Source of the DNA: Pseudomonadota bacterium | GTDB taxonomy: Bacteria > Pseudomonadota > Alphaproteobacteria > Sphingomonadales > Sphingomonadaceae | DNA length: 64,000 nucleotides | Direction of reading: 5' to 3' | Assembly: GCA_034211135.1 (NCBI GenBank) | Contig: JAXHVK010000001.1 | Location: 9,675-73,674, forward strand | Shown: positions 22,101 to 53,578 of the stretch, piece by piece | Numbering within the stretch: position 1 is the stretch's first letter | Layout of the letters: every line of letters begins with the position of its first letter | Program-made: the position numbers and the translations under genes | The notes under the pieces: generated by a model | Databases searched by the model: none | Seen by the model: the letters and a program-made list of their open reading frames with translations, nothing else | What the model was told of the DNA's origin: nothing

Positions 22101-23490
<1,390 letters not shown>

Positions 23491-35875: not shown

Positions 35876-36558
35876 TGGGCGGACTCCCGGGACCAGTTGA
35901 TGGCGTTGACGAAGATGCCGAGCGGGTTTTTGCGCAGGCGCTCGGCATCGCGCGGCTGCTGCAAAACAATAGTGAGAATGGCGGTCCAGCGTTCGGTGGC
36001 GGCGAGTTGGCCGTTGGCGTAGCGGCGCTCGATCCAGGCGATGCGGAAGCTGCTCTCGGAGGCGCGGATAACGCTGGAGACTTCGACGGAGGTCTGGGTG
36101 TCGCCAACCTTGGCGAAGGGGTCGTTCACCCTGGCGTAGTCGTTGAGCGCCAGCGCACCTTTGTCGGTCGTGAAATCATACGCGTGCAGCCAGTTCTGGC
36201 GCAGCACGATCGGATCGGCGGGAATCTGGCGCACATTCTCGATGAAGCGCGAGAGGTGATAAGCGATCTGCGGATCGGTCGGTCGGAAGTCGGCGGCGGC
36301 GGGCGTCACGGCTTGCGCCGCGCCGAGCCTGTCCACTTCGACGACATAGGGCGTGATCGTCCCTTGTGTGGACTGCCAGACCAGCGCGGCGCTGAGCCCG
36401 CCTGAGAGCAGCAGGGAGCCGAACGCCATCAGCCGCCAGTTCCTGGCTTGCACGCGGGCCGATCCGATGCGTTCGTCCCAGACCTGCGCGGCCTTCTGAT
36501 ACGGCGTGACGGGCTCGGGAGTCTTGGAATAACGAACGCTCGGGCGACGGAACATCAT
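35872..36558 (-). CDS. trbF: TrbF/VirB8
   Basis: TPYQKAAQVWDERIGSARVQA...NPLGIFV. Confidence 0.95.
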   Translation of the reverse strand: MMFRRPSVRYSKTPEPVTPYQKAAQVWDERIGSARVQARNWRLMAFGSLLLSGGLSAALVWQSTQGTITPYVVEVDRLGAAQAVTPAAADFRPTDPQIAYHLSRFIENVRQIPADPIVLRQNWLHAYDFTTDKGALALNDYARVNDPFAKVGDTQTSVEVSSVIRASESSFRIAWIERRYANGQLAATERWTAILTIVLQQPRDAERLRKNPLGIFVNAINWSRESAQ

Positions 36559-37841
36559 GATTTCTCCGAAAGGCTGACAGCGGTCCCGCCGCCGCCATGG
36601 TCGCCGGAGCGAACGGCATGGGCGGCGACGGCGGCGCCGTGGTGAAGGGTTTGCTGTTGTTTCATGCGACGCGCCCAGGCTGGCGGTCCGCTACTGGCAG
36701 AGGGCGAGACGTCGGGGCTGTTACTGAACCTGCCGCCGGTCGCTTCGAAGGCCGCGCGCGCGCCGGAGCGGTAGCTTCCGCTCATGGAACGGCGGAGCGG
36801 GTTCGTAGCGGCGCCGACGCCGGCTTTTCCAACGCTGGCGAGACCGGCGGCTACGCCGGAAGCGCCGCCGCCAGCGGCCGCGCTTCCCATGCTGTAGGCG
36901 GTCGAGGCGCCACCGGCGACTGCCGCAGCGCCGCGCGCTCCTGCGCCGGCCGCTCCCACGGCCATCCGGGCGCCAGCGACCCCGCCGACAGCAAGCCCGC
37001 CGGCGGCGAGGCCTGCGCCAACCGCAGCGCCTGCGCCGAGTTGCGGTCCGCCCGAGACGATGCCGTTGGCGATGCCCGGACCGAAGATGCCGAGCGCGAG
37101 TATGGAGAGCGCGGCCAGAACGATGGCCATGGCGTCTTCGATTGTCGGCTCGCCCGTGAACCCGGCGGTGAACTCGCCAAAGATGGTCGAGCCGATGCCA
37201 ACGATCACGGCGAGCACCAGCACCTTGACCCCGGACGAGATCACCAGCCCGAGCACCCGCTCGGCCATGAAGGCGGTTTTGTTGAAGAGGCCGAAGGGCA
37301 CGAGGATGAAGCCGGCCAGCGTGGCGAGCTTGAACTCGATCAGCGTGACGAAGAGCTGGATCGCTAAAATGAAGAAGGACAGGAGGACGACCAACCAGGC
37401 GAACAACAGAATGATGATCTGGAGGAAATTCTCGAAGAAAGAGACAAAGCCCATCAGATCGGAAATCGACGCGAGAATCGGACGGCCCGCATCAAGGCCG
37501 ATCTCGGCGATGCGGCCGGGCTGAAGCAGCTCGCCGGGGCTAAGGCTGCCTCCCGAAGCGATGAGACCGAGCCCGGCGAAGCTTTCGAAAACTATGCGGG
37601 CGAGCGCGTTCCAGTTGCCGATGATGTAGGCGAAGACGCCGACGAAGAGCGTTTTCTTGATGAGCCGGGCGAGGATGTCGTCGTCGGCGCCCCAGGCCCA
37701 GAAGAGCGCGGCGAGCGTCACGTCGATGACGATCAGCGTCGTTGCGAGGAAGGCGACATCACCGCCGAGCAGGCCGAAGCCGCTGTCGATGTAGGAGGTG
37801 AAGACCTGCAGGAACCGGTCAATGACGCCAACGCCGCCCAT
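36555..37841 (-). CDS. trbL: TrbL/VirB6
   Basis: YIDSGFGLL, EFKL and a Gly/Ala-rich C-terminal tail. Confidence 0.95.
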   Translation of the reverse strand: MGGVGVIDRFLQVFTSYIDSGFGLLGGDVAFLATTLIVIDVTLAALFWAWGADDDILARLIKKTLFVGVFAYIIGNWNALARIVFESFAGLGLIASGGSLSPGELLQPGRIAEIGLDAGRPILASISDLMGFVSFFENFLQIIILLFAWLVVLLSFFILAIQLFVTLIEFKLATLAGFILVPFGLFNKTAFMAERVLGLVISSGVKVLVLAVIVGIGSTIFGEFTAGFTGEPTIEDAMAIVLAALSILALGIFGPGIANGIVSGGPQLGAGAAVGAGLAAGGLAVGGVAGARMAVGAAGAGARGAAAVAGGASTAYSMGSAAAGGGASGVAAGLASVGKAGVGAATNPLRRSMSGSYRSGARAAFEATGGRFSNSPDVSPSASSGPPAWARRMKQQQTLHHGAAVAAHAVRSGDHGGGGTAVSLSEKS

Positions 37842-37844
37842 GTC

Positions 37845-38117
37845 CTACTCCTTCTCGGGATCGTCGCCGGGAAGCCCGAGAAACCGGCGGCGCTGCTCTG
37901 CCCAGGCGGCGCGACACGTCGTGTCGGTTTCCAGCTCTTCCGGCGTCACCGTCCGGCAGCGAGAAAGTTCCGCCTGCAACGGATCGTCGGTCACGGGCGG
38001 AACCGAAGGCGTTTCCGGAGCGACCGTGCTCGCCAGCTCAACCGCGGCGAAGAGTGCAGCGAGCCCGCCCAAGGCGATGGCGACGAGCCTGATGATTTGG
38101 TCGGGAGAGCTGCGCAC
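37845..38117 (-). CDS. trbK: Putative entry-exclusion protein TrbK-alt
   Basis: L-x-R-C...C-x-x-A-W-x-x-x-R-R-R-F-L-G pattern; located between trbJ and trbL. Confidence 0.75.
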   Translation of the reverse strand: MRSSPDQIIRLVAIALGGLAALFAAVELASTVAPETPSVPPVTDDPLQAELSRCRTVTPEELETDTTCRAAWAEQRRRFLGLPGDDPEKE

Positions 38118-38122
38118 GGAAC

Positions 38123-38863
38123 TTACCGGAACATGCTGACGGCGGTTGGCGTGTAGCCGGTCCCGTAGTCGAGGAAACGGCTGAGGTTCTCCCGCCCCTG
38201 CGCTTCAGCGGAGGCGCGCCGAGCCGCGTCCAGCGCGTCCGCGCGGTTCTGCGCCGCGATGGCGGCGGTAAGGTCCGTCATCTGTTGGCTTTGCAATGCC
38301 AAAAGTTGATTGCCGGCCTGCGCCGCCTGCAAGGCGCCGACCGCACCCTGGCTTTGCGAGACGAGAGTGCTGAGTTCCGCGCGCGTCGCTTCAATATTGC
38401 CGACGACGCCGGCCTGGACCTTCAATGCGTCTTCATAGCCGGCAACCGAGGTCCGCCAGCGCGCCTCGGCATTGGCGTTCATGGCGGCGAAATCGCCGGT
38501 TGCTGCGGCGTCTCCATATTGTTCGGAGAAGACGCGTTCGATTTCGGAGACGACGTATCTAACGCGCTGGGCTTCGCCCAACAGATCTTCCGTCTGCTGC
38601 ATGATCGACCGCAGACGCGCCAACGATGAGTGCGGCAGGTTTGCGAGGTTGCGTCCCTGGTTGATCAACATCTGCGCCTCGTTCTGAAGCTGCGTGATCT
38701 GATTGTTGATCATTTCGAGGGTGCGCGCGGCGGTGAGAATGTTCTGCGCGAGGTTGGTCGGATCGATGACGACGTCGCCGACGCCGAACAGCGCATAGGC
38801 CGGTTGCATCGGCGCCAAGGCGATTGCGCCAGTTATCATGAGGGCGGCGAGTTTCTTACGCAT
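38123..38863 (-). CDS. trbJ: TrbJ/VirB5
   Basis: Signal peptide; DPTNLAQNILTAARTLEMINNQI and GALQAAQAGNQL. Confidence 0.93.
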   Translation of the reverse strand: MRKKLAALMITGAIALAPMQPAYALFGVGDVVIDPTNLAQNILTAARTLEMINNQITQLQNEAQMLINQGRNLANLPHSSLARLRSIMQQTEDLLGEAQRVRYVVSEIERVFSEQYGDAAATGDFAAMNANAEARWRTSVAGYEDALKVQAGVVGNIEATRAELSTLVSQSQGAVGALQAAQAGNQLLALQSQQMTDLTAAIAAQNRADALDAARRASAEAQGRENLSRFLDYGTGYTPTAVSMFR

Positions 38864-41315
38864 GAGTGATCTCCGTGGTTTGAGGGGATGGGATCGGATC
38901 AGGTGCTTGGCCGAGCAGTTCGACCGCCCAATCAAGACCGCGACGGGCGAGCCAGGCTGCGGCGAAGCCGTCTCGTCCGTGTTCGGCGAGGATGTCGGTG
39001 ATGGCGGCGTGATCGGTCTTCGACGATGCGGCCGTGAAGGCGAGTGCGACCTCGCCGAGACCGAGCGAGAAAAGCCGATTGCCGCGCCGCGACTGGCAGT
39101 AATAGTCCCGCTTCGGCATGGCCCGCGCGACGATCTCGATCTGGCGTTCATTGAGGCCGAAGCGGCGGTAGATGTCGGCGACCTGCGGTTCGAAGGCGCG
39201 CTCGTTCGGCAAGAATATCCGCGTGGGGCAGCTCTCGATGATGGCCGGCGCAATCGCGGAATTGTCGATATCGGCGAGCGACTGCGTGGCGAAGAGGACG
39301 GACGCGTTCTTCTTTCTCAGAGTCTTCAGCCATTCGCGGAGCTGGCCGCCAAACGTCCCGTCATCGAGCGCGAGCCAGCCTTCATCGACGATGATGAGGC
39401 TCGGCCGTCCGTCGAGGCGATCCTCAATCCGATGGAACAGATAGGCGAGCACGGCGGGCGCCGCGGCCGATCCGATCAGTCCTTCTGTCTCGAAGGCTTG
39501 GAAGTCGGCCGTTCCGAGCTCTTCTGTTTCGGCGTCGAGCAAACGTCCGAAGGGACCGTCAAGACAGAACGGCGCCAATGCCTGTTTGAGTTCGGTTGAC
39601 TGCAATAGTACGGAAAGCCCTGTGAGCGTTCGTTCTCTGACCGGCGCTGAGGCGAGAGACATCAACGCCGACCAGAGATGATCCCGTGCGACCGGATCGA
39701 TGGTGACGCCTTCGCGCGCGATCAGGCCGGATAGCCAGTCCTGCGCCCAGGCGCGCTCGCTCATTTCGTCAATGTTGCGGAGCGGTTGAAGCTGGACGGC
39801 GGCTTCGTCATCCGAGAGCGCGCCGGCGAGATCCTGCCAGTCTCCGCCACAGGCGACGGTCGCGCAGCGGATCGAGCCGCCGAAGTCGAAGGCGAAGACT
39901 TGGCTACGCCCGTAGCGGCGAAATTGCAGCGCCATCAACGCCAGCAACACGGATTTGCCCGCGCCGGTCGGACCGACGACCAGTGTGTGCCCGACGTCGC
40001 CGACATGAGGCGAAAAGCGAAACGGGGTTGAGCCTTCCGTCTCCGCGTAAAAGAGCGGCGGACCGTCCAGATGATCGTTTCGCGGCGGTCCTGCCCAGAC
40101 CGCCGAGATCGGGATCATGTGGACGAGATTGAGCGTAGAAACCGGCGGTTGACGGACATTGGCGTAGAGATGGCCGGGCAACGAGCCAAGCCACGCCTCG
40201 ATGGCGTTCAAAGTCTCGGGCATGCAGGTGAAGTCACGACCCTGAATGACCTTTTCCGCCGCCTTTAGCTTGGCGTCCGCGACGGCTTCGTCCTCATCCC
40301 AGACGGTCAGCGTAGCGGTGATGTAGGCGGCGCCCGCTATGTCGGCGCCAAGCTCTTGCAAGGCTTCATCGGCGTCGGCGGCCTTGTTCGCCGCGTCGCT
40401 ATCGAGCAGCGTCGAAGCCTCGTTGGTCATCACCTCTTTCAGGATCGCGGCGATGGATTTGCGCTTAGCGAACCATTGCCGGCGGATGCGCGTCAGCAGT
40501 TTGGTCGCGTCGGTCTTGTCGAGGCAGATAGCGCGCGTGACCCAGCGATATTCGAAGGGTTGGCTGTTGAGCTCATCCAGCAGTCCCGGCCATGTGGCCG
40601 TGGGGAACCCGATGATGGAGAGGCTGCGCAGATGCGCCCCGCCCAAACTCGGCGCCAACCCGCCGACGAGCGCGCTGTCGGCCAGGAGCGCATCGAGATG
40701 CATCGGCGTTTCCGGTACGCGCACGCGCTGGCGGCGCGTCGAAACAGTCGAATGCAGAAAGGTCAGTGTCTCTTCGTCGGAGAGCCAGGCGGCCTCCGGC
40801 ATGAAGCCGTCGAGGAGATCGAGCAGACGATCCGTCCGCGCCGTAAAACTCTCGACATGCTCTTGCGGGTTGAGGCCGCTGTCAGGTGCGTCCTCATAAA
40901 GCCATCGTCCCGCGCGGCTCGTATCGTCGAGCGGCGGCATCCAGACGAAAGTCAGGAAGTAGCTGTTTTCGAAATGTCTGGACGCATCTTCAAACTGGGC
41001 GCGTCGCTCCGCGTCGACGAGGGCGGAGACCGGATCAGAAAATTCAGAGAGCGGATAATCGCGCGCCGGCGCCCGCTGCGCTTCGACGAACACCGCCCAA
41101 CCCGATCCAAGCCGGCGTAGGGCGTTGTTGAGCCGGCCGGACACGGCGACGAGCTCTGACGGCGTCGCGGAGTCGAGGTCAGGCCCCCGAAACCGTGCGG
41201 TGCGTTGCAGACTGCCATCCTTGTTGAGGATGACGCTCTCCGCGACAAGCGCCGCCCACGGAAGAAAATCTGCCAATAGCGAGGTGGTCGAGCGATATTC
41301 GGCAAGGCGCATCAT
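38856..41315 (-). CDS. trbE: TrbE/VirB4 ATPase
   Basis: GPTGAGKS, IVDEGW and LRKKN; 819 aa, uninterrupted. Confidence 0.96.
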   Translation of the reverse strand: MMRLAEYRSTTSLLADFLPWAALVAESVILNKDGSLQRTARFRGPDLDSATPSELVAVSGRLNNALRRLGSGWAVFVEAQRAPARDYPLSEFSDPVSALVDAERRAQFEDASRHFENSYFLTFVWMPPLDDTSRAGRWLYEDAPDSGLNPQEHVESFTARTDRLLDLLDGFMPEAAWLSDEETLTFLHSTVSTRRQRVRVPETPMHLDALLADSALVGGLAPSLGGAHLRSLSIIGFPTATWPGLLDELNSQPFEYRWVTRAICLDKTDATKLLTRIRRQWFAKRKSIAAILKEVMTNEASTLLDSDAANKAADADEALQELGADIAGAAYITATLTVWDEDEAVADAKLKAAEKVIQGRDFTCMPETLNAIEAWLGSLPGHLYANVRQPPVSTLNLVHMIPISAVWAGPPRNDHLDGPPLFYAETEGSTPFRFSPHVGDVGHTLVVGPTGAGKSVLLALMALQFRRYGRSQVFAFDFGGSIRCATVACGGDWQDLAGALSDDEAAVQLQPLRNIDEMSERAWAQDWLSGLIAREGVTIDPVARDHLWSALMSLASAPVRERTLTGLSVLLQSTELKQALAPFCLDGPFGRLLDAETEELGTADFQAFETEGLIGSAAAPAVLAYLFHRIEDRLDGRPSLIIVDEGWLALDDGTFGGQLREWLKTLRKKNASVLFATQSLADIDNSAIAPAIIESCPTRIFLPNERAFEPQVADIYRRFGLNERQIEIVARAMPKRDYYCQSRRGNRLFSLGLGEVALAFTAASSKTDHAAITDILAEHGRDGFAAAWLARRGLDWAVELLGQAPDPIPSPQTTEITHA

Positions 41316-41318
41316 CGC

Positions 41319-41588
41319 TCAGACTCCGAACCAGGTTGGGAAACGGAGATGCCGGCGCGCGACATCGACGATCTGGGCGTCGCGTTTTGCGGCCCAGACC
41401 GCGAGGAGATGGCCGACAAGCCAGAGTGCGATCCCGACCACCCAGAGCCTGAGGCCAAGTCCGACGGCCGCTGCGAGCGTGCCGTTGGCAATGGCCACCG
41501 TGCGGGGGGCGCCGCCGAGCAGGATCGGCTCGACCAAGGCGCGGTGGACGGGCGCGTAAAAGCCCGGAATGTCGGCCAGCTCGCGCAT
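41319..41588 (-). CDS. trbD: TrbD/VirB3
   Basis: PVHRALVEPILLGGAPR; start ATG 41588. Confidence 0.92.
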   Translation of the reverse strand: MRELADIPGFYAPVHRALVEPILLGGAPRTVAIANGTLAAAVGLGLRLWVVGIALWLVGHLLAVWAAKRDAQIVDVARRHLRFPTWFGV

Positions 41589-41917
41589 CAGATCAGTGCT
41601 CCGCCGCCAAACGAGAAGAAGGACAGGAAGAAGCTCGACGCCGCGAAGGCTATGGAGAGGCCGAAGACGATCTGCACGAGGCGGCGAAAACCGCCAGAGG
41701 TGTCGCCGAAGGCGAGCGTCAGTCCCGTGACGATGATGATGATCACCGCGACGATCTTGGCGACCGGCCCTTCGATGGATTCCAGGATTGACTGGAGCGG
41801 CGCCTCCCAGGGCATGCCCGAGCCCGCCGCATGGGCGGGCGCGACGAGCAGAAGGCTGAACGCAAGCGCCGTCGCGTAGAGCGGCCAGCGTGGATAGAGA
41901 ATTGTGGTTTTGGTCAT
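41588..41917 (-). CDS. trbC: TrbC/VirB2 pilin
   Basis: AGSGMPWEAPLQSILESIEGPVAK. Confidence 0.95.
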   Translation of the reverse strand: MTKTTILYPRWPLYATALAFSLLLVAPAHAAGSGMPWEAPLQSILESIEGPVAKIVAVIIIIVTGLTLAFGDTSGGFRRLVQIVFGLSIAFAASSFFLSFFSFGGGALI

Positions 41918-42897
41918 GGATGGTCTCCTGTCTGGGGGTGAAGAAGTGGTTGGATCTGGTAATCCCCGGTCGCATCGAGGCCCTCGACGCGAGCGAGCTC
42001 GGAAAGCCGGCGCGCCGATCCGCGCCCCGAGAGGACGGCGATCAGGTCGATCGTCTCTGCGATCATCGCGCGGGGCACGGTGACGACGGCTTCCTGGATG
42101 AGTTGTTCGAGGCGGCGCAGCGCACCGAGCGCTGAACCGGCATGGATGGTGCCGATGCCGCCGGGATGGCCGGTGCCCCAGGCTTTCAAGAGATCGAGCG
42201 CCTCAGCGCCGCGCACCTCTCCAATGGGAATGCGGTCAGGACGAAGGCGGAGCGAGGAGCGAACGAGATCGGAGAGCGACGCAACGCCATCCTTGGTCCG
42301 CAGAGCGACAAGGTTGGGCGTCAGGCATTGGAGTTCACGCGTATCTTCGATCAGAACGACGCGGTCGGAGGATTTGGCGACCTCTGCGAGCAGCGCGTTG
42401 GTAAGAGTGGTTTTGCCGGTCGAGGTGCCGCCGGCGACAAGGATGTTGGCGCGGGATGTGATGGCGTCGCACAATGCCGCCGCCGCATCGTCCGGCATGA
42501 TCCCGGCGCGGACATAGTCTTCGAGCGTGAAGACGGCGACGGCCGGTTTGCGGATCGCGAAGACCGGCGCGGCGACGACAGGCGGCAACAGCCCCTCGAA
42601 CCGCTCCCCCGTTCCCGGCAGCTCCGCGGACACACGCGGGGATCCTGCATGGACCTCTGCGCCGATATGGTGCGCAACCAGACGGACGATGCGTTCGCCG
42701 TCAGCGGCGGAGAGCTCTTCACCTGTGTCGGCGAGACCTTCGCATAGCCGGTCTACCCAAAGACGTCCGTCCGGATTGAGCATCACCTCGACAACTGCAG
42801 GGTCTTCGAGCCATGCAGCTACATCAGCTCCCAGAGCGGTCCTGAGCATGCGTGCGCCACGAGCGAGCGCTTCGGATTTGAATGTGTGGACGGTCAT
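41914..42897 (-). CDS. trbB: TrbB/VirB11 ATPase
   Basis: [16 protein letters not shown] and GEVRG. Confidence 0.95.
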
Positions 42898-43075
42898 TGG
42901 CGGCCCCGCATTGGATTACGGGGTCGATCAAGAAGACCGTTAAAGGCTCAGCGGCAACAGCTTAGAAGGCGTAGTAGTACAACGGCGTGGAACGGCAGGA
43001 AATTGCGTAGGTCGCGGAGTTGAATAAGGGCGGGTTTGCGAACCGAGCGGTCATAGATCAAGTGGCCGAGTCCAG

Positions 43076-43936
43076 CTATCCAAGTGCAACTAGCTCTTTG
43101 AAGTCAGTCTCGCGGATGATGCGGAGCGGCTGACCGGCAGAGACAAGGTCTTCTGCCTTCCGATGCTTCGAGGATTTGTCATGTCCGGCCAATTTGGTCA
43201 CGTCCATGTCACCGACGACGAGCATCGTCGTCTTCTTCGTCACGCTGTTCGCCACGGTGCACCCAGCCGACGCCGCAAGATCAGCAGCCTCGCGACGCGG
43301 TATCTCAAGTGCACCTGTGAACACAATCACTTCACCTGCAAAAGGTCCATCAGGATTTCCGTCACGTGTGATTGAGGCCGCGCCGGTTGATGATGGGTCT
43401 ATAGGTTGCAGGACTCGTCTCTGCATTGCATCGAGGTCGAGACCGCTTTCCTGCATCGCGGCAAGCATGACATGGCCCGCCGCCTTGGCATCCTCCAAAG
43501 CGTTGTGATGCTCGAAGGTGTAACCGATCATCTTGCAGACGTTGGCCAAACCGTAACCCGACTGTGCGCACTCTGACCAAACGCGACGTGCGACGCGTGC
43601 GGAGTCGAGCCATGTGCAGGAAGGGGCAGTGATCGACCACCGACCCGCTGCTTGGCGCATCGCGACACGGTCGAAGTGCGTATGAGTAACAACGACCTGT
43701 CCACCAAGGAATCGGGCAATTTCGGATGCTGCGTCACTGAATGTCGGTGCGCCTTGCACATCGCCTTCCGAGATACCATGGATCGAAATGTTGACGGGAT
43801 CGAAGAAGTCGTCCGGATCGATGAGGGAATACCATTCTGTCGCAATCGCGCCATTCTCGAAAGCAACTACTCCAATAGAACAGATCGAAGCCATGTCAGC
43901 GTTTGCGGTTTCAACGTCGATCGCGACAAATCGCAT
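43076..43936 (-). CDS. DEDDh 3'-5' exonuclease with C-terminal BRCT domain
   Basis: IDVET, HFD and HNALED; BRCT-like VFTG...SVTKKTTMLVVG. Confidence 0.85.
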   Translation of the reverse strand: MRFVAIDVETANADMASICSIGVVAFENGAIATEWYSLIDPDDFFDPVNISIHGISEGDVQGAPTFSDAASEIARFLGGQVVVTHTHFDRVAMRQAAGRWSITAPSCTWLDSARVARRVWSECAQSGYGLANVCKMIGYTFEHHNALEDAKAAGHVMLAAMQESGLDLDAMQRRVLQPIDPSSTGAASITRDGNPDGPFAGEVIVFTGALEIPRREAADLAASAGCTVANSVTKKTTMLVVGDMDVTKLAGHDKSSKHRKAEDLVSAGQPLRIIRETDFKELVALG

Positions 43937-44067
43937 AGACAAGCCCTCCAGCAAATGACGGGTACAAATACATGCAACGAGATCAATGCAGGCATTGTTT
44001 ATCCGTCAATCATGCCGGAAAACATCGATATTCAAAATAGGCTCAAAGACGTTATTGACCAGAACAG

Positions 44068-44472
44068 TCACCTAATGTCCTCAGACACTTCCTTCACCAA
44101 TGAGTTGCCCTTCGCCAAGCGTCGACCAAGGGTCTTCACAAAGCCTTCATACCGCTCGCGGCCTTTCGCTTGCGCAGCATCGCGCATCGACTCTGGTAAT
44201 GGCGGAGTCGTCGTAAGCCAGAAACGGACAAACAGAGCGACCGCTTCGTTGCCGATGGTCACGTCCCGCTCAAGGCGTTCGACGGCGCGAGTCAGCCGAT
44301 CGAGACGCCGCGTGATCGCTGCCTCACGCTGATCGGCGGCGTCCGGTGAGAGATAGGAGGCCAGCGCCGCTTCCACGATCTGAGATTTCGAAACTTTGCG
44401 CCGCGCCGCCAGCGCGTCGAGCTCCGCTGACAACGACGGATCGAAATAGACATTGAGCCGATCTTTCTTCAT
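44068..44472 (-). CDS. CopG/ribbon-helix-helix regulator of the ICE
   Basis: RLNVYF...SKSQIVEAALASYLSPD; lies downstream of traG. Confidence 0.85.
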   Translation of the reverse strand: MKKDRLNVYFDPSLSAELDALAARRKVSKSQIVEAALASYLSPDAADQREAAITRRLDRLTRAVERLERDVTIGNEAVALFVRFWLTTTPPLPESMRDAAQAKGRERYEGFVKTLGRRLAKGNSLVKEVSEDIR

Positions 44473-44480
44473 GGCGAGCC

Positions 44481-46490
44481 TCAAAGATCGATGCCGTCAT
44501 CGGGATCAAGCGAGGCCTGCCGGGCGATGCTCCGGAAGCGGCCCTGCATCTGGCGGGCGCGCTGCGCGTCGTCATCCGGCTCGTCGTCGAGACTCGCGAA
44601 CTCCTCCCGTGCCGACTGCGCCGGTTCCGGCGCGATGTCTTCATGCTCGGGCAATTCAGGCTCGCGGCGGATACCCCCATCGGCGTCTTCGCCCGCATCG
44701 CCAGACCTCTTCTTCCGGGGCTTGGGAGCAACGATGGGCGCTCGGCCGCTCCAATCATCCCTCTGCACTTCGTTTGGTGCGGCTACTTCAGCGATAAGGT
44801 TCGGCGGCGACTGGATGCGTGTCTTGAGCTGCGGGTCGGCATAGTAGCGCGCCTTCTTCCCCCGGACCGGCGGCGCGCCAGAGATGAGAACGATTTCATC
44901 ATCGGGGGGAAGTTGCATGATCTCGCCGGGCGTCAGCAAAGGCCGCGCGGTCTCTTGCCGGGAGACCATGAGATGGCCAAGCCAGGGCGACAATCTGTGC
45001 CCGGCGTAGTTCTTCATCGCCCGCATCTCGGTCGCCGTGCCGAGGGCGTCGGACACGCGCTTGGCGGTGCGTTCGTCATTCGTCGCGAAGCTCACCCGAA
45101 CATGGCAGTTGTCGAGGATGGCGTTGTTCTGGCCGTAGGCCTTCTCGATCTGATTGAGGGACTGGGCGATGAGGAATGCCTTGAGCCCATAGCCTGCCAT
45201 GAAGGCAAGCTGACTCTCGAAGAAATCGAGACGCCCGAGCGCGGGAAACTCGTCGAGCATAAGCAACAGGCGATGGCGCTTGCGATTGGCGTTCAACTCT
45301 TCTGTCAGCCTGCGTCCGATCTGGTTCAGCACAAGCCGGACGAGCGGCTTTGTGCGGCTGATGTCGGAGGGCGGCACGACGAGATAGAGCGTGGTCGGCC
45401 GCGCGCCGGAGACCAGATCCTTGATCCGCCAATCGCAGCGGCTCGTGACCCTAGCGACGACGGGATCGCGATAGAGGCCCAGAAAACTCATCGCCGTAGA
45501 CAGAACACCGGAGCGTTCGTTTTCCGACTTGTTGAGGAGTTCACGCGCCGCCTGCGCCACGACCGGGTGCGGCCGGTCGCCAAGATGTGGGGTGCGCATC
45601 ATCGCCGCGAGCGTCGCCTCGATCGGCCGGCCCGGATCAGAGAGGAAGGCGGCGACGCCGGCGAGCGTCTTGTCCGCCTCAGCGTAGAGGACATGGAGGA
45701 TCGCGCCGACGAGCAGCGAATGGCTGGTCTTCTCCCAATGGTTCCGGCGTTCGAGCAGACCTTCCGGATCGACGAGGATGTCGGCGACGTTCTGGACGTC
45801 GCGTACTTCGCTGTCGCCGCGCCGGACTTCGAGCAGTGGATTGTAGGCCGCGCTCTTCGCGTCGGTCGGATCGAACAGGATGGTGCGGGTGAACCGCGCC
45901 CGCCACCCGGCGGTGAGCTGCCAATTCTCTCCCTTGATGTCATGGACGATGGCCGAGCCCGGCCAGGTCAAGAGACTCGGGACGACGAGGCCGACGCCCT
46001 TGCCCGAGCGGGTTGGCGCGAAGCAGAGCACATGCTCCGGGCCGTCATGCCGGAGGTAGTGGTTCTCGAAGCGGCCAAGCACGACGCCGTCCGCGGCAAG
46101 CAACCCGGACGATTCAACGTCCTTCCGCTCCGCCCATCGGGCTGAGCCGTAGGTGGTTACGTCGCGCGCCTCGCGAGCCCGGAGGACGGAGAGGAAAATC
46201 GCGACACCGATCGCGGCGATCCCGCCGCTGCCGGCAATGATCGCGCCTTCGACGAACACACGCGGCGCATAGGCGTCGTAGAAATACCACCAGACGAAGA
46301 AGCTCCAGGGCGGATAGATCGGCCATCCGAGAATGTCCGTCGTCGGCGCGCCGAGCTGAGGCTGAAAGCCGAGCCGCCATGCGGTCCACTGTGTTGCGGC
46401 CCAGATGAAACCGACCACAACGAGCGAGACAATGATGATCTGGCCCCAGAGGATTTTGGTGGCCTGTGTTGGCTGTGTCTTGATCGGCAT
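44481..46490 (-). CDS. traG: TraG/VirD4 type IV coupling protein
   Basis: FAPTRSGKGVG, DIKGE and LDEF. Confidence 0.95.
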   Translation of the reverse strand: MPIKTQPTQATKILWGQIIIVSLVVVGFIWAATQWTAWRLGFQPQLGAPTTDILGWPIYPPWSFFVWWYFYDAYAPRVFVEGAIIAGSGGIAAIGVAIFLSVLRAREARDVTTYGSARWAERKDVESSGLLAADGVVLGRFENHYLRHDGPEHVLCFAPTRSGKGVGLVVPSLLTWPGSAIVHDIKGENWQLTAGWRARFTRTILFDPTDAKSAAYNPLLEVRRGDSEVRDVQNVADILVDPEGLLERRNHWEKTSHSLLVGAILHVLYAEADKTLAGVAAFLSDPGRPIEATLAAMMRTPHLGDRPHPVVAQAARELLNKSENERSGVLSTAMSFLGLYRDPVVARVTSRCDWRIKDLVSGARPTTLYLVVPPSDISRTKPLVRLVLNQIGRRLTEELNANRKRHRLLLMLDEFPALGRLDFFESQLAFMAGYGLKAFLIAQSLNQIEKAYGQNNAILDNCHVRVSFATNDERTAKRVSDALGTATEMRAMKNYAGHRLSPWLGHLMVSRQETARPLLTPGEIMQLPPDDEIVLISGAPPVRGKKARYYADPQLKTRIQSPPNLIAEVAAPNEVQRDDWSGRAPIVAPKPRKKRSGDAGEDADGGIRREPELPEHEDIAPEPAQSAREEFASLDDEPDDDAQRARQMQGRFRSIARQASLDPDDGIDL

Positions 46491-46512
46491 GTCTTTTCCT
46501 TCCGGGCAATGC

Positions 46513-48270
46513 TCAGATGCCAAGCCCGCGCTTGCGGCCAAGGCTCCAGTCGATCCCACCGCCCGGCGTCATCGTTCCCATCACGGTCTGGCTGAGATGG
46601 CGTTCGAGCTGGGGTTTCCACGGGACGAGTTCGAAGCCGAGGCCGTCATCGACCATGGCGAAACGGCCTGAGGCGAGATCGAGACGCTGGCGATAAGTGC
46701 CCGAGATGCGATCGCCTTCTGCAGAATTTCTGCGAAGCAAGCCGGTCTCGGCTTCGATAGTGGCGGCCGCTGCGTCGAGCTCCCGTTCGCGCAACGTCTT
46801 CAGGAGATCCCGGGCGAAGGTGACGCGTCGTCCGTTCCTTGTCGCAAGCCCCTCGGCGACCAGATGATCGGCGCGCCGGTCGAGCGCGTCGCGAACTTCA
46901 GCGCCGAAGCCGCCCATGCTGAGCGGCGCTTGGGTCCTGGCGAGTTGCAGCCGATCGAGCCAGGTCGCGCCGTTCGCACCGATCTGGGTTTGGAGATTGA
47001 CGTCAGAGCGGCCGACGAGGGCCATACGCTGATGGCCTCCATCGTCCGAGCGCCAGACCCGCGTTTCAACAATCCCGCCTTCGGGCGTGTCGCCCGTGGC
47101 GTCGAGATCGCTGAAGCGCAGATGATGGACGCGGCCGTCCACCGCGTCGATCACGGCATAGGCCTCGCCGCGCAACTCGTCATGAAGTCCGCGCTCGACC
47201 AGCCGTCCCAGGACTGGGACGCTCGGTGTTTCCTCGATCGCGAAGTCCGTTTGTGTGCGTCCTGGTCCGCCGGACATGGCGCGGTGCATGGTCTTGATGA
47301 TGTCGCCACGCTCGGCAAGATCGCGCAACGTTTCCTGTGCGCCCGGTTTCAGGGACCAGACCGCGGGGGCGAGCCTGTCGGCGAGGCCGAGCCGCTCCAG
47401 CATCTGGGCGCGACCGATAAGAAGTCTGCGCAGTTGCGGATCGCGCGGTTCGGGAGAGCCGGGACGCAGATCAGCAACCCCGGCGCCGTCATCGGCAAGC
47501 CCCTGAAGCGCGCGGTCAAGACCCGTCCAGCGTTCGGCTTTCACTTCCGCCTGAAGCCCGGCTGCGATCTCCCGCTCGGTGCGCGGCCCGAGCTCCAGTT
47601 CGACCAATTGCTCGGCGCGGCTGCGGAGCCCTCGGCTGATATAGTCGCGGGCGATGACGAGGTCCTTGCCATCATCCGCTCGGCCGCGCACGAGAACATG
47701 GATGTGCGGATTGTCGGTGTTCCAATGATCGACGCCGATCCAGTCAAGCTTCGTGCCGAGATCGCGCTCGGCCTGGCTCATCAGGTCGCGTGTGTAGGCG
47801 CGCAGGTCTTCGAGGCGGTCGGCGTCTTCGGGCGAGACGATGAAGCGGAAATGATGGCGGTCCTCTTCGCAACGTTCGGCGAAGGCGCGATCATCGACGC
47901 TGTCCGCTTCGGCGTTGAACATGCCCGCATCAAGCCCGTCGCGGGTCACACCCTCACGCTTGAGATAGGCGATGTGTTTGGCGAGCGGGGCGGAACGGAA
48001 ACGTGCGCCACGATGACGGACGATCCGCGCCTTGACGACGACGCGCCGCTGGGTGCGCGCGAGCCCCCGTGCCGCACCGGCGAAGCGGCCCCGGCCGAAT
48101 TGCGATCCGCGACGACGTCCTTTCGAACCGTTCAGCTTGTATCCGGTGTGTCCGGCCTTGCGGGCGGCGCCCATGACCTGGCCGACAAAGCTTTGCGCCT
48201 TCCGGGCGCTTGTCCCCTTGTTGCGGATGCGGCCGGGCCGGATGCGCATGTCATTATCGCGGTCGCTCAT
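46513..48270 (-). CDS. Relaxase (MOBP/VirD2-like, RlxS-like with DUF3363)
   Basis: YLKREG motif I, HFRFIVSPED and HWNTDNPHIH HUH motif. Confidence 0.93.
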   Translation of the reverse strand: MSDRDNDMRIRPGRIRNKGTSARKAQSFVGQVMGAARKAGHTGYKLNGSKGRRRGSQFGRGRFAGAARGLARTQRRVVVKARIVRHRGARFRSAPLAKHIAYLKREGVTRDGLDAGMFNAEADSVDDRAFAERCEEDRHHFRFIVSPEDADRLEDLRAYTRDLMSQAERDLGTKLDWIGVDHWNTDNPHIHVLVRGRADDGKDLVIARDYISRGLRSRAEQLVELELGPRTEREIAAGLQAEVKAERWTGLDRALQGLADDGAGVADLRPGSPEPRDPQLRRLLIGRAQMLERLGLADRLAPAVWSLKPGAQETLRDLAERGDIIKTMHRAMSGGPGRTQTDFAIEETPSVPVLGRLVERGLHDELRGEAYAVIDAVDGRVHHLRFSDLDATGDTPEGGIVETRVWRSDDGGHQRMALVGRSDVNLQTQIGANGATWLDRLQLARTQAPLSMGGFGAEVRDALDRRADHLVAEGLATRNGRRVTFARDLLKTLRERELDAAAATIEAETGLLRRNSAEGDRISGTYRQRLDLASGRFAMVDDGLGFELVPWKPQLERHLSQTVMGTMTPGGGIDWSLGRKRGLGI

Positions 48271-48296
48271 GACAAAGCGCCCGCTTGAAAGCGCGC

Positions 48297-48442
48297 GGCA
48301 CGGTGAAACCCGCATAAAAACAGTGGGTTGGGCGATGAGATGGCACTGTGCCCATGACCGCAGCGGGCGAAATACCCAACAACAACAATGACATAGCGGG
48401 CATCGGTGCCGCGCCTTTTATCTCGCCCTCCCGTTGTTGTTG
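48297..48442. other. Candidate oriT
   Basis: Intergenic region upstream of the relaxase with nested inverted repeats and TATCTCGC, resembling a MOBP nick site. Confidence 0.55.
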
Positions 48443-48517
48443 CGCCTTCCGTCCCCTTCCTTCCTCCCGGAAACACGCCATCGCACGACGGACTGCGCGA
48501 GAGTGCAATCAGCGAGA

Positions 48518-49201
48518 TCATCGCTGATCCCCGGTTCCATGTGGCGGGAATAGGCTGTCCGAAGCTCCGGATGTGTGCGGAGGATAAGCATCGGCGCCGC
48601 TGCCTGGGTGCGTTTCGTCAGCAGCCGTCTGCCGATCAGTATGTGCGGCGAATAGCGGCGCTGTGCGCCAGTCCACGGTCAGAAACGCACTCTGTTCATG
48701 CCGTTCCGCTGCAACCGATGCGCCGATGAGCGGCGCCAGCGCCGCAACATAATCGCGGGTTTCTCTGGGTAGCTGGCGACCTGTGGCTAGATGCTCGGCA
48801 TAGCGTGTCGGTCCCGCATTGTAGGCGGCGAGGAAGCCCGGCGATCCGAAGCGGTCATGCAGTTCACGGAGATAAGCGGCGCCCGCCAGAATGTTGTCGC
48901 GAGGATCGAACGGATCGCGCCCCAGACCGTAACGCGCGCGCAGCTCATCCCAGGTGTCGGGCATGATCTGCATCAGCCCCATCGCGCCTTTTTCGCTGAC
49001 GGCGCGCACGTCGCCGGCGCTTTCCTCGCGCATAACGGCGAGGATCCCATGCGCGGGGACGCCGAAGCGCTGCGCAGCTTCGGCGATAAAGGCAGCATAG
49101 GAATTGCCGCCTTGTTCCGTCCTGGAGGATGCGGTTTCTGCTGATACGGCGTGAGAGACAACCACGCCGGAGAGCAGACCGCAGAGGAGGAACTTCGCCA
49201 T
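48518..49201 (-). CDS. Lytic transglycosylase
   Basis: ES...GAMGLMQIMP and AAYNAGP. Confidence 0.9.
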   Translation of the reverse strand: MAKFLLCGLLSGVVVSHAVSAETASSRTEQGGNSYAAFIAEAAQRFGVPAHGILAVMREESAGDVRAVSEKGAMGLMQIMPDTWDELRARYGLGRDPFDPRDNILAGAAYLRELHDRFGSPGFLAAYNAGPTRYAEHLATGRQLPRETRDYVAALAPLIGASVAAERHEQSAFLTVDWRTAPLFAAHTDRQTAADETHPGSGADAYPPHTSGASDSLFPPHGTGDQR

Positions 49202-49223
49202 AATCGCGCAGCGCCGAGACGGT

Positions 49224-49571
49224 CTAGCCGCGCTCATCGCGTTTCTCGGGGCGCTTTGCAGGGCGGTTCCAATAGAGCGCCCAATTTCCGTCCTCGGCGT
49301 CGGTCTTGAAGAGATTGGCGCGGATCGGAAACGCAAAGGTCGGGTCGTCGATCTGCAAAGAGATGTATTCACCGGCTTTCTCGCCGGTGCGTTTCCAGCC
49401 GGCGCCGATTTCCGGCCCGTCATCATCGCCGTGATGGACGCGATAGTCGGGTGCGTTCTCGCTGTCTGACGGTGTTGCCGGAACGAGGGTGATTTCACGG
49501 TAGAGAATGAGCGTGTGAAGCCGACCGGTGAAGCCGGTTTCTGTGCGCGTGAATTGACCGATCTGAGCCAT
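49224..49571 (-). CDS. DUF736 domain protein
   Basis: APDYRV...IGAGWKR...YISLQIDDP. Confidence 0.88.
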   Translation of the reverse strand: MAQIGQFTRTETGFTGRLHTLILYREITLVPATPSDSENAPDYRVHHGDDDGPEIGAGWKRTGEKAGEYISLQIDDPTFAFPIRANLFKTDAEDGNWALYWNRPAKRPEKRDERG

Positions 49572-49584
49572 GGGGAAGTTCCTT

Positions 49585-50163
49585 TCATTTGCGGTCGGAA
49601 GATTTTTGGGAGGCCCCGGCGTCGCGATCGGCGCGCCAGACATACCGGCCGTCGCCGTCTTCATCGGTGAGGATCGGAACGGCGCGTCCGATCACGGCGT
49701 CCGCCGGGAGCGCGCCGAAATAGCGACCATCGAGACTGTCGGGATGGCTGGGATTCAGGAGGAAGAGCTCTGTTCTGGCGACGATGTGGCAGCCCTGCCA
49801 AACGGGCAGGTCGCGTCCGAAGCGGTCGCTCGGCCTAGCCTGCGCCAGGGTGATGTCGTCGACAGTGACAGCGGCGCCATCGCGGCAGACACGCTGTCCT
49901 GGAAGCGCAGCGATATGCTTGAGGAGCGGCACGCCTTCAGGCAGATAGCCGCGCTCGTCGAGATAGATCGCAAGCGATTTCGGCGGATCGACGACGACCA
50001 GATCGCCTACGGCAAGATCGTCTTCCGACGCGACGGCGTAGAGTCCAATGGGCGCGCTCGCGGACGCGTTCCAGATCAGCTTTGGGCTCACATGGACGAA
50101 GGCCAGTCCGCCGATCGCGAGCACGGAGAAATAGGTCGTCATGACGTAGCCGAACCGGGTCAT
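49585..50163 (-). CDS. traF: TraF / S26 signal peptidase-like pilin maturase
   Basis: WNASASAPIGLY, LLKHIAALPG and SLDGRYFG. Confidence 0.9.
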   Translation of the reverse strand: MTRFGYVMTTYFSVLAIGGLAFVHVSPKLIWNASASAPIGLYAVASEDDLAVGDLVVVDPPKSLAIYLDERGYLPEGVPLLKHIAALPGQRVCRDGAAVTVDDITLAQARPSDRFGRDLPVWQGCHIVARTELFLLNPSHPDSLDGRYFGALPADAVIGRAVPILTDEDGDGRYVWRADRDAGASQKSSDRK

Positions 50164-50666
50164 GACGCGCTCCCCGCCGATGTGGCGCGCTGTGTCTTTA
50201 GAGCGGGCGGACAAGTTTGGCGCAGGAGCCAGGCGCGATGCTGAACGGCTGTGTAGAAGCGCGGCTCCAAGCCTGCAGACAGCCTGTTGTGAACGTGGCG
50301 CCAATAGTCCGGCACGGCGTCAGCGGGGTCGATGTCGAGCGCTTCGATCGCATCGGCGAACTGAAGAACCCGTTCGACTTTGGGCCAGCCGGAGAGACGC
50401 AACAGACTGTCGCCGCCGGGTGTCACATGCGGCACGGTCGCATAGGGCTCACCTGCTCTGGGCGCGCGCAGGATGTCGATCCGGCTTTCCGCCGTACCGA
50501 AATCATTTGCCTGCCAGCGGACGAAGGCGAAGACGGCGCCGGGATCGAATGCGACGGTGCTGCGGCTACGGCTCTGGATCGTTGTCCGCACGATCCGGCC
50601 GAAGCGAATCCAGTGCTCGATCTGCTTCTCGATCCAGACGAGCTCGACAATGGCGCCGCCGCTCAT
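50160..50666 (-). CDS. DUF2840 domain protein
   Basis: VELVWIEKQIEHWIRFG and FVRWQANDFGT. Confidence 0.88.
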   Translation of the reverse strand: MSGGAIVELVWIEKQIEHWIRFGRIVRTTIQSRSRSTVAFDPGAVFAFVRWQANDFGTAESRIDILRAPRAGEPYATVPHVTPGGDSLLRLSGWPKVERVLQFADAIEALDIDPADAVPDYWRHVHNRLSAGLEPRFYTAVQHRAWLLRQTCPPALKTQRATSAGSAS

Positions 50667-50947
50667 GAGCGGGCCTTCCGTGCATAGGCGGGCGAGATCG
50701 CTGCATGCCGCTTGGCGGGCAGCACCTCGTCGCCCGTGTCGTCCGAGGTCGAGTTCTTCTCTCCCCGGCTAACCCAGGCTTGCAAATCCTCGATCGCGTA
50801 GACGACACGCCCGCCGATCTTCGAGTAGCGCGGTCCCGTGCCGTAGGTGCGATGTTTTTCGAGCGTCCGCCCCGAAAGGCCGAGAAAACGGGCCGCTTCA
50901 GGCGTTCGTAAATAGCGTGGGGGAAGTCCGGCATTGGGATCGGGCAT
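50663..50947 (-). CDS. rdfS: AlpA/MerR-like excisionase (RdfS homolog)
   Basis: YLRTPEAARFLGLSGRTLEKHRTYGTGP; first gene of the DUF2840-traF operon. Confidence 0.88.
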   Translation of the reverse strand: MPDPNAGLPPRYLRTPEAARFLGLSGRTLEKHRTYGTGPRYSKIGGRVVYAIEDLQAWVSRGEKNSTSDDTGDEVLPAKRHAAISPAYARKARS

Positions 50948-51034: not shown

Positions 51035-51062
51035 TGACGATCAGAGCGCGGCGAAAACGTCA
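51035..51062. promoter_or_regulatory. Candidate FseA-type activator box at the rdfS promoter
   Basis: TGACGA-N16-ACGTCA (5/6 inverted), about 90 bp upstream of the rdfS start. Confidence 0.45.
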
Positions 51063-51103: not shown

Positions 51104-51967
51104 TCAGAACGGAATTTCGTCGTCCAGATCCGCGACTGGTGTCTGACGGGAAGCTTCGATGCGCTCGATAAACGCAAGCGATGCGAGGACGCTGTCTATG
51201 ATGAATTGCGCTTCCGAGACGTCGAGGAGCTCATTGTCATGGGCGAAAGAGCGCTTGTTGCGCGCCTGGTTCAGACCGTCGAAGAGCTTGTGCTGAACGC
51301 GGAGTGTCGGCAGGGCGAACTCGCTGACGGCGCCTTCATCACGTAAGGCCTTGCCGTATGCGCCGAATATGGCGTCGAGCGGAGTCTTTGCATCGACGAC
51401 CTGGTCCCGCGATGCCAGCAGATCGCGGAAGCGTTTGACGCAATAGGTATGCACACGATCCAGTGCGACATCCGGTTTTTCCGCTACAAGATCGGCGGCG
51501 ATGGACGCACGTAGTTTGGGCAGCGTGGTGTCGCGCGAGAAGTCCTTGAACGCGTCGTCGAGGTTCAGCGTAGACGCATTTTCAAGCTCATTCGTGAACT
51601 GCTCAAGCCATGCTTTCAGGCGCTCTTCTTTCGCGGCGTCCGCATCCACATAGCCATCGAGACTGCAACGATACGCCCACAAGACGCGAAGAACCTGAGC
51701 GACGAGGCGCGGTTCAGCGACCTCGACAAAGCCTCTGAGTGTTTTGCCCTTGCTCGCGCCTTCGACCTGGAAGCGTTCTTGGAATATCTGGATGTCGAAA
51801 TTTTCCTCAAACCACTCGGCCATGGTTCGGTCGGAAAAGTCGAGAACGTAGCCGCCGCCACTATGAAATATCTGGTCAAAGACAGCTCGTTGCTGAGACG
51901 GCAGCCGGCGCGTGCGTCCGATAATCCTGGGAAGGTTGGAATCAAGGTCTTGCGAAGGCTGAGTCAT
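51104..51967 (-). CDS. Abortive infection family protein (AbiJ-like N-terminus, Abi_C-like C-terminus)
   Basis: GGYVLDFSDRT N-terminus; LDRVHTY and RNKRSFAHDN (RxxxxxxH, HEPN-like). Confidence 0.7.
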   Translation of the reverse strand: MTQPSQDLDSNLPRIIGRTRRLPSQQRAVFDQIFHSGGGYVLDFSDRTMAEWFEENFDIQIFQERFQVEGASKGKTLRGFVEVAEPRLVAQVLRVLWAYRCSLDGYVDADAAKEERLKAWLEQFTNELENASTLNLDDAFKDFSRDTTLPKLRASIAADLVAEKPDVALDRVHTYCVKRFRDLLASRDQVVDAKTPLDAIFGAYGKALRDEGAVSEFALPTLRVQHKLFDGLNQARNKRSFAHDNELLDVSEAQFIIDSVLASLAFIERIEASRQTPVADLDDEIPF

Positions 51968-52025
51968 CCGATGAACATACCGAAAACCTTCCGTGGCGCA
52001 CAGTCACTGTGAAGTATTGGCGGCC

Positions 52026-52740
52026 TCAGCGGCCTTTGCCCTGAAGAAGTTGGCGATAACCGCGATCGATCATCATCCGCCCGTAAGTGGCCAGCCGCGC
52101 AACCTGCGCCTTGAGCGAACTGGTCTTTCACGGTTCGGCGGCGACGCGATCAGCGCCGAAGAAGGCCGTGGCAATGGCACGATAGCTGGCGCCGCTCTGG
52201 CGTCCGTCGATCGTGCGGAGGGCGCGTTTCAGTCGCTCGCGCCGATGTGGCGTAATCGGCGGATCTGAGTCGCGCTCGATAAGTTGGCGATACAGTCTGT
52301 CAGCGGCAGCAAGCCGAACGGGCCAGGCGTCATCGAGAGGAAGCAGGAGACCTACAGGCCGATCATCGACCAGATTACCGACAAGATTGACGCCGTTCTC
52401 CAATCGCATCCACGACAGTCCGTCGTCGCCCGTTTCGCGATCTGTGATGCTGTCGGGAGGAATGGCGGCGGTCAGGCCGATGTCGGGCAGAGACGCGATC
52501 AGGTGAACCACTGCGGGTGCAGCGGAAGGCAGCCAGAAGACCGGGGCGCCAAGTGCGTTGAGCTCCGGGTCTACCGGGAAATCGCAACCCCCAATCGGCT
52601 GGAGCGCCGCCGCCCTCCTGCATCATGTCGTAGTCTTTGCGATAATGCGTGTTCCGCCGAAGGCACTCCCAGGCAAGCCCCGAGATGTCGAGCTGATCGA
52701 AATGATCATATTGGTGATCGTCGCGCCAGTCGGCCGGCAT
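52026..52740 (-). pseudogene. fseA: FseA-like activator (DUF6499 + DUF2285 joined by a +1 frameshift), with a premature stop at 52128-52130
   Basis: AWECLRRN...WGLRF, then after the +1 shift PVDP...LRTIDG...ASYRAIA, then TGA, then in-frame KTSSL...GYRQLL. Confidence 0.8.
52576..52596 (-). other. +1 programmed ribosomal frameshift site
   Basis: GAT.TGG.GGG.TTG.CGA.TTT.CCC matches the recalled msi172-msi171 consensus SRV.TGG.GGN.NTN.NNN.TTT.CSY at all but one position. Confidence 0.8.
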
Positions 52741-52869: not shown

Positions 52870-53145
52870 CTATTCCAGGGGAAGACCGTTCCTGAGAATG
52901 TCCCGATATCCTTGTTCGGTCATCCAACGCGCGCGGGACAGGTGGCTGTCGTGCACACGGCGGGCCCGCTCCGGCTCCGCCCTCGCGTCGATGCCAAGCA
53001 AGACCGGCGACACCTCTTCCAGCGATGCTCCGGCGTCATTGGCGTCGAGAAGTCGCATGTAAAGCTTGAGGTGATCGCGATCATAGACGGTCACGGCCGC
53101 ATCGTTCGGCGGGGCATCTGCGATCGTAAGCGGGGTGGCGGGCAT
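52870..53145 (-). CDS. qseM: QseM-like antiactivator (stand-alone DUF2285), 91 aa
   Basis: YD..H...YMRLLDA...S..E....LGID...EPERAR....SHL.RA.WM...GY closely matches Mesorhizobium QseM as recalled. Confidence 0.85.
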   Translation of the reverse strand: MPATPLTIADAPPNDAAVTVYDRDHLKLYMRLLDANDAGASLEEVSPVLLGIDARAEPERARRVHDSHLSRARWMTEQGYRDILRNGLPLE

Positions 53146-53297: not shown

Positions 53298-53318
53298 CGA
53301 TCCGCATTTTACTTGCGG

Positions 53319-53537
53319 ATGGATATTCGTGACGTTTTTGGAAAGAATCTCAAGCACTACCGGATGAAAATCGGCATCAGCCAGGACGCGCTGGCGGCCA
53401 AAATGGGCGTTGATCGCGCCCATGTGAGTTCGATGGAGCGCGGCCAGCAGAACGTGACCATCATCACCCTTTGGCATGCGGCGCTCGCGCTTGACGTGAA
53501 GCCGGCTGCACTTCTCGACGATCAGGCTCAGGATTAG
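53319..53537 (+). CDS. qseC: XRE-family controller protein (QseC homolog)
   Basis: FGKNLKHYR...SQDALA...DRAHVSSMERGQQNVT; divergent from qseM; no Shine-Dalgarno sequence seen. Confidence 0.8.
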   Translation: MDIRDVFGKNLKHYRMKIGISQDALAAKMGVDRAHVSSMERGQQNVTIITLWHAALALDVKPAALLDDQAQD

Positions 53538-53578
53538 AATTAGAGGCGCCCCGCCCGCTGAGCGGGGCGCCGGAAGCG

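Follow-up and report, generated by a model that had tools for sequence, protein, structure and literature searches.

Does a single premature stop codon in the gene for an FseA-type master activator shut down an otherwise complete ICE? The question is raised by a locus in the window, i.e., the whole stretch of 64,000 nucleotides analyzed here, which holds most of a ~57-kb ICE situated at a tRNA-Arg and provided with a control circuit of the ICEMlSymR7A type. The original prediction for this locus, made from the letters of the DNA alone, was that one TGA cuts off the DNA-binding end of the activator and leaves the element in a domesticated state.

The frameshifted fseA gene and its premature stop

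The FseA-type activator gene is on the minus strand, and its translation begins at the ATG at 52740 and reaches its natural stop, a TGA, at 52025-52023 (Table 1). Frame A translates as MPADWRDD...GLAWECLRRN...ADWGLRF, and frame B as FPVDPELNALGAP...FFGADRVAAEP-TGA(52130-52128)-KTSSLKAQVARLATYGRMMIDRGYRQLLQGKGR-TGA(52025-52023). A +1 slip at UUU-C (52581-52578) would shift translation from the former into the latter. This site closes the stretch UGGGGG UUG CGA UUU C (52593-52578), the G-rich part of which (UGGGGG, 52593-52588) is upstream of the slip, and the two frames overlap as they do in the relatives; by sequence, the gene thus shows the UUUC motif, the upstream G-rich tract, and the frame layout that characterize frameshifting in the FseA family. 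A +1 frameshift at UUUC with a G-rich tract is found in ~61% of FseA homologues. Once the frameshift is counted, the product is 203 aa long, as opposed to 237 aa if the first TGA is read through, and both these lengths and the arrangement AAEP-TGA-tail-TGA of the DUF2285 frame are as originally predicted.

Table 1. Features of the fseA locus and of the surrounding element, in window coordinates
Feature	Position	Strand	Basis
fseA 5' part (msi172-like frame; frame A)	52578..52740	-	Translation; PF20109; same two-frame layout in relatives
fseA +1 frame (msi171-like), middle domain and DUF2285 H1, H2, H2b, to ...AAEP (residue 203)	52131..52580	-	Translation, PF10074, AlphaFold2 helices
Premature TGA at invariant Trp (residue 204)	52128..52130	-	Plus-strand T at 52128, C in relatives
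Orphaned 34-codon tail (KTSSLKAQVARL...QGKGR), terminal long helix (H3 recognition helix and H4)	52026..52127	-	End of PF10074; AlphaFold2 helix 155-180
Natural fseA stop TGA	52023..52025	-	Homologues end within a few residues of the same point
qseM-like antiactivator, 91 aa, DUF2285 only	52870..53145	-	PF10074, E = 1.4e-8; 91-aa gene in L023
qseC-like HTH_3 repressor, divergent from qseM	53319..53537	+	PF01381, E = 2.1e-11; 72-aa gene
Putative FseA box TGACGT-N16-TCGTCA	51035..51062	-	88-115 nt upstream of rdfS ATG
rdfS-like excisionase, HTH_17, 94 aa, presumed FseA target	50663..50947	-	PF12728; length as in relative
Abi_C-domain gene between fseA and the rdfS promoter	51104..51967	-	PF14355
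Transfer backbone, full length: DUF2840, traF (S26 peptidase), DUF736, SLT, relaxase (DUF3363), traG coupling protein, trbB-E, J, L, F, G, I	33651..50666	-	Pfam
Left att repeat, 3' half of tRNA-Arg(CCG): 3' 45 nt and TTT	22184..22231	+	44/48 identical to partner

The N-terminal region matches PF20109 (the DUF6499-type N-terminal domain) over residues 4-55 (E = 3.2e-17), and within it AWECLRRN (residues 23-30) takes the form of the AWEFLRRN-like motif of the DUF6499 helix alpha-2. When the gene is read through, PF10074 (DUF2285/RovC_DNA-bd) aligns over its entire length (profile positions 1-107 of 107; residues 132-233; E = 4.6e-31), and this alignment spans the stop at 204 without interruption. 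The qseM-like ORF matches the end of the same profile, which fits the earlier suggestion that the tail is coding-like and resembles the end of the neighboring QseM paralog. The complete extended-turn HTH of the DUF2285 domain (H1, H2, H2b, Trp, H3, and H4) is accordingly encoded in the DNA, but is absent from the translated product. Judging by these matches, the gene belongs to the FseA-type family by descent, with a product that is predicted to be truncated.

We collected relatives by a six-frame search together with a scan of GTDB genomes, which gave 11 loci, 60-99% identical, from Hyphomonas, Ponticaulis, Hyphococcus, Psychromarinibacter, Roseitalea, Roseibium, and unclassified MAGs; a separate homologue set comprised the 120 best cluster representatives from a collection of 5.8 billion proteins. 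At the position of the stop all 11 loci have TGG, in the context ...EPWKTSSLKAQ..., and the Trp is kept in 120/120 of the best cluster representatives, each of which extends 32-43 residues past it. The same column is invariant in a 91-sequence alignment. Neither the related loci (0/11) nor the best cluster representatives (0/120) have a stop here, and none of the homologues in these two sets ends at the same point, where shared end points would have told against the original prediction; its statement that homologues have a Trp here, and with it the change from TGG to TGA, is borne out by both sets. Five short matches (103-130 aa) were considered as natural truncations and rejected, as they are N-terminally short calls that retain the Trp and the tail. 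Likewise, the single TGAs flagged in two distant relatives (G016 and G018) proved to be +1-frame stops just upstream of the frameshift site, and do not concern the Trp.

By sequence comparison the stop is recent, because the closest intact copy (locus L025, GCA_001306275.1) differs from the window at just 6 of 4,212 positions (51300-55511), one of these being the stop base at 52128. In the 718-nt fseA itself, a further locus (L013) differs twice, viz., at the stop and at a third position where the change leaves the protein unaffected. The orphaned tail has 0-1 nucleotide differences from the intact alleles and shows no decay, so that the gene has the profile of a recent pseudogene, with near-identical copies free of the defect and no secondary defects of its own. 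The recent loss envisaged in the original prediction is in line with both the position of the stop among these six differences and the undecayed tail. A single G-to-A transition changed the Trp204 codon from UGG to UGA and very likely disables the activator, which would make this an ordinary recent loss-of-function in a well-known type of regulator.

Predicted effect on DNA binding and on the rdfS promoter

An AlphaFold2 model was computed for the +1-frame part only, with the TGA read as Trp and 91 sequences as input. In it the DUF2285 domain has a pLDDT of 84-93, and the modeled helices 111-128, 133-141, and 143-148 (H2b) are followed by Trp151 (equivalent to residue 204) and then by a long helix at 155-180. 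A Foldseek search recovered RovC (6xz5) as the top match for the model and also found the NMR structure of QseM; when the whole model was used, the N-terminal half of which is of low confidence, the matches beyond RovC and QseM were noise. RovC 6xz5 was also the only solved relative found by sequence, through a weak phmmer match (E = 2.3e-7, in two short stretches) that covers the C-terminal domain, with the Trp among the aligned residues, as well as the AWECLRRN motif.

In FseA, Trp235 closes helix H2b and lies in a hydrophobic pocket that H2 and H3 help to form, and the W235A substitution abolishes activation; R243A, R247A, and R248A in H3 lower activation, DNA binding is strongly down in the R247A-R248A double mutant, and H1 and H4 jointly clasp helix alpha-2 of DUF6499 (PMC10359603). 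Residue 204 probably corresponds to Trp235 of R7A FseA, as suggested by its conservation, its position in the modeled fold, and its distance from the C-terminus (33 residues from the Trp to the end here, 31 in R7A). In the model the stop falls immediately ahead of the final long helix, and W235A, R243A, R247A, and R248A all impair FseA (PMC10359603), both of which agree with the predicted loss of the DNA-binding end. Expression of msi172/msi171 is moreover required for that of rdfS in R7A (PMC4755241), and from the Mesorhizobium protein we infer that DNA binding and excision would be lost here.

The neighborhood contains the further parts that such a circuit would need. The putative FseA box upstream of rdfS has the geometry described for FseA boxes, with inverted hexamers 15-16 bp apart (PMC10359603), and is conserved across 9 related loci, in which the letters of the spacer vary. 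In the 3.1-Mb genome a strict match to it is present at the rdfS promoter only. By analogy with ICEMlSymR7A, the rdfS promoter is presumed to be activated in an FseA-like manner, and this activation to be inhibited by QseM. A promoter and terminator scan of 50800-53700 yielded nothing useful.

Two other FseA-like DUF2285 genes are found elsewhere in the genome (G000:C23:16297-16587 and G000:C84:11085-11324); both are single ORFs of ~280 aa with no frameshift, are ~31-35% identical to fseA, and are presumably part of other mobile elements. We also considered a resident trans-activator that replaces FseA, which is unlikely because these other DUF2285 ORFs are so divergent and there is no second FseA box in the genome.

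Given this organization, we propose that the G-to-A change, by turning the Trp204 codon UGG into UGA, would end post-frameshift translation at residue 203 and yield a product without the final long helix of the DUF2285 HTH, i.e., the recognition helix H3 along with H4, the latter of which would normally pack against the N-terminal DUF6499 domain. Such a truncated FseA should neither bind TGACGT-N16-TCGTCA nor activate the rdfS promoter, so that rdfS would stay off and excision and transfer would be abolished or strongly reduced, with the rest of the element left intact. As the best explanation of the locus we therefore favor, with good confidence, a recent G-to-A knock-out of the ICE activator FseA, or at least a severe knock-down in which Trp read-through of ~1% persists. 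An element in this state may be "locked" or "domesticated", as the original prediction put it, and could be reactivated by reversion, by recombination with a related ICE, or by an incoming relative that uses the same FseA box.

Leakiness of the stop, the base call, and the truncated product

It is conceivable, if unlikely, that the stop, though genuine, lets enough ribosomes through to be of consequence, with Trp-tRNA(CCA) restoring FseA at the Pro-UGA-A context and the element being merely attenuated, with excision at a lower rate. UGA is the leakiest of the stop codons, and in E. coli its read-through goes up at low temperature and with the level of tRNA-Trp. Hayes and colleagues reportedly found in 2002 that a Pro codon before the stop makes a poor context for termination in E. 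coli, where the C-terminal Pro slows the process (cited in PMC3834316), and a comparable effect of the Pro-UGA context may be expected in this host. In E. coli reporters UGA read-through amounts to ~2-4%, with Trp as the inserted amino acid (PMC10570021). As Trp is also the native residue at this position, its insertion by ordinary read-through would restore wild-type FseA at a low level, and we estimate that near-cognate Trp read-through might leave ~1% of the frameshifted ribosomes producing full-length FseA. In R7A, once the system is induced, excision proceeds even where activation reaches no more than 0.8% of the fused-gene level (PMC4755241).

Several observations weigh against an element that is only attenuated. 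The stop would impose a 25- to 100-fold drop atop a frameshift of 4-13%, with QseM encoded just upstream, and the resulting level is probably under the activation threshold. Read-through does not appear to be programmed, because the stop is conserved in none of more than 130 relatives, and the downstream sequence is that of the intact alleles, so that it holds no evolved read-through signal. Aragorn found neither a tRNA-Sec nor a suppressor tRNA with a UCA anticodon in the assembly, which is 92% complete, and the anticodon stem of the single tRNA-Trp(CCA) is of the normal 5-bp length, not the 4 bp of the decoding variant considered (cf. PMC13092985). That TGA is a stop in this organism is shown by the natural terminator of fseA, itself a TGA; selenocysteine, a suppressor tRNA, and genetic code 4 were rejected on this ground and for want of a decoder tRNA. 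By sequence, then, there is no programmed read-through here, but the ordinary leakiness of UGA.

The base call itself deserves scrutiny, as the TGA might have arisen in sequencing, assembly, or consensus calling, or represent a minor variant picked up in a metagenome-assembled genome, while the organism itself has TGG and a normal FseA. The draft genome is fragmented (277 contigs, 92% complete, 2.9% contamination), and the intact alleles differ by one base only at the stop. The public collection indexes an intact but otherwise identical +1-frame ORF of 161 aa in 60 blocks, and the truncated ORF of 127 aa in a single contig (L023). This contig, a Logan assembly of SRR24907499, matches the window with 100% identity across 6,384 bases, the TGA included. 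An assembler error is unlikely because this separate assembly agrees on the stop, even though the contig possibly comes from the same sample as GCA_034211135.1 and would then be independent in the assembler only. Consensus substitution errors are, further, rare at normal depth, and the other ICE genes show no frame defects. We accordingly consider an artefact or a minor variant to be quite improbable and return to a genuine knock-out or severe knock-down of fseA as the preferred reading.

A variant of the leaky stop would make the UGA a second translational gate, such that both the +1 slip and Trp read-through are needed for active FseA and the abundant 203-aa product meanwhile binds QseM; the element would in that case be under an ultra-low-frequency or condition-dependent switch, and not dead. 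We regard this as very improbable. Finally, that the truncated protein has a role of its own, whether in titrating QseM or in forming dominant-negative dimers with a co-resident FseA and thereby conferring immunity to related incoming ICEs, strains belief: residues 1-85 of FseA do equal the full-length protein in their binding of QseM, FseA is dimeric (PMC10359603), and the 203-aa product keeps the DUF6499 region, but the allele has been seen once and so gives no sign of spread or selection, the loss of H4 probably destabilizes the fold, untagged FseA is already insoluble in vitro (PMC10359603), and the Pro-stop end may draw tagging by tmRNA, the gene for which is present. The recent loss of FseA function accordingly remains the explanation that we carry forward.

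Architecture of the ICE and comparison with known systems

The att repeats bound an element of ~57.4 kb, the right third of which is outside the window and carries defence-type cargo. The partner of the left repeat is at C1:89215-89262, beyond the window (equivalent to 79541-79588); it was missed by an exact 14-mer search and recovered by a short-word BLAST as a 44/48 repeat, and the differences between the two copies are compensatory changes in the T-stem. Adjoining the right repeat is a P4-type integrase gene (C1:87711-89147) that is intact and encodes a protein of 478 aa, which includes an Arm DNA-binding domain. A partial 5' tRNA copy is also seen at ~21973 of the window. The defence-type cargo comprises a GHKL ATPase (start 63316), an AbiEi-like regulator, an AAA_21 ATPase and a UvrD-like helicase (a Gabija-like pair), and a DpnII/MboI-type restriction endonuclease; to the right of the window such cargo occupies the region before the integrase (L033, G000:C1:73001-90853). 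The ORFs shared with the related ICE in genome G041 are of equal length in the two elements, with the sole exception of the fseA +1-frame ORF (127 vs 161 aa), a comparison that upholds the original claim that the other transfer genes are intact.

The ICE is a mosaic, as judged from its identity profile against related elements. The stretch at ~51.3-58.2 kb, which takes in most of the Abi_C gene, fseA, qseM, qseC, DUF736, ABM, LysR, and the SLOG/YAcAr gene, is ~99.9% identical to the ICEs at L025 and in G041; from rdfS through the trb genes identity is 85-90%, and the profile puts a recombination breakpoint near 51250, at the 3' end of the Abi_C gene. An ABM-domain and LysR cassette (54451-56374) is 99.9% identical to a segment of G041 that is in another place and in the opposite orientation there, which suggests that this cargo module is mobile or has been recombined. 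Between trbB and traG there is a gene for an RNase_T exonuclease with a BRCT domain (43076-43954); it is missing from the G041 ICE, where ~2.4 kb of different DNA occupies that spot. The identical intact 161-aa ORF has its 60 blocks in public assemblies, and relatives of 75-92% identity are found in Hyphomonas, Ponticaulis, Hyphococcus, Kaustia, Pelagibacterium, Qipengyuania, and Psychromarinibacter, a distribution that points to an ICE family widely spread in marine bacteria.

What this locus may capture is the earliest visible step of ICE immobilization, with one base changed at the residue where the master activator is most sensitive and a ~57-kb element whose full transfer machinery and defence cargo are intact despite the fseA stop. 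As many marine Alphaproteobacteria possess this regulatory module, complete with a DUF2285 ORF that is intact and otherwise identical, the TGA copy offers a natural isogenic control for how much FseA an ICE of this family requires. For the rest, it is a point mutation of an ordinary kind, in a regulator already well described, and reveals no new mechanism. What is new is a further ICE under FseA/QseM/RdfS control, in a marine genome that probably belongs to Hyphomonas, judging by its closest relatives; the FseA family is already known, as are pseudogenes and recombination in the ICE regulatory loci of Mesorhizobium (PMC8627217).

The closest known counterpart is FseA (Msi172-Msi171) of M. japonicum ICEMlSymR7A, with which the protein shares a DUF6499 domain with the AWE(F/C)LRRN motif and a DUF2285 domain; by sequence, the two genes also share a site for +1 programmed frameshifting, a UUUC that a G-rich tract precedes. 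In msi172 the slip is one of tRNA-Phe on UUUC, with an upstream G-rich tract and a reported frameshift rate of 4-13% (PMC4755241). The R7A protein is longer (266 aa, against 237 aa here when read through) and has a codon for Trp235, whereas the equivalent here is a stop and the H3/H4 end is not made. Also common to the two elements are an adjacent, divergent qseC/qseM pair and inverted hexamers 16 bp apart before an HTH_17 excisionase gene, which is followed by traF, SLT, and relaxase genes. They differ in layout: here fseA follows qseM on the same strand, with 129 nt between them, whereas in ICEMlSymR7A a TraR-driven fseA operon converges on qseM, and an Abi_C gene is here interposed between fseA and the rdfS promoter. 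Pfam matches of the ORFs of at least 150 aa included no traR or traI.

RovC of Yersinia (6xz5), the solved structure closest to the model, is by contrast a single-ORF activator of type VI secretion, as against the ICE regulator encoded here, and FseA and RovC are 22% identical (PMC10359603). In Mesorhizobium, ICE regulatory loci concentrate loss-of-function changes and recombination (PMC8627217), and the mosaic structure described above fits this pattern of recombination at the regulatory locus. The Mesorhizobium cases, however, involve copies of traR/traI and truncated genes, whereas the present element, in a marine Hyphomonas-like host, has a single nonsense codon in fseA and no further decay.
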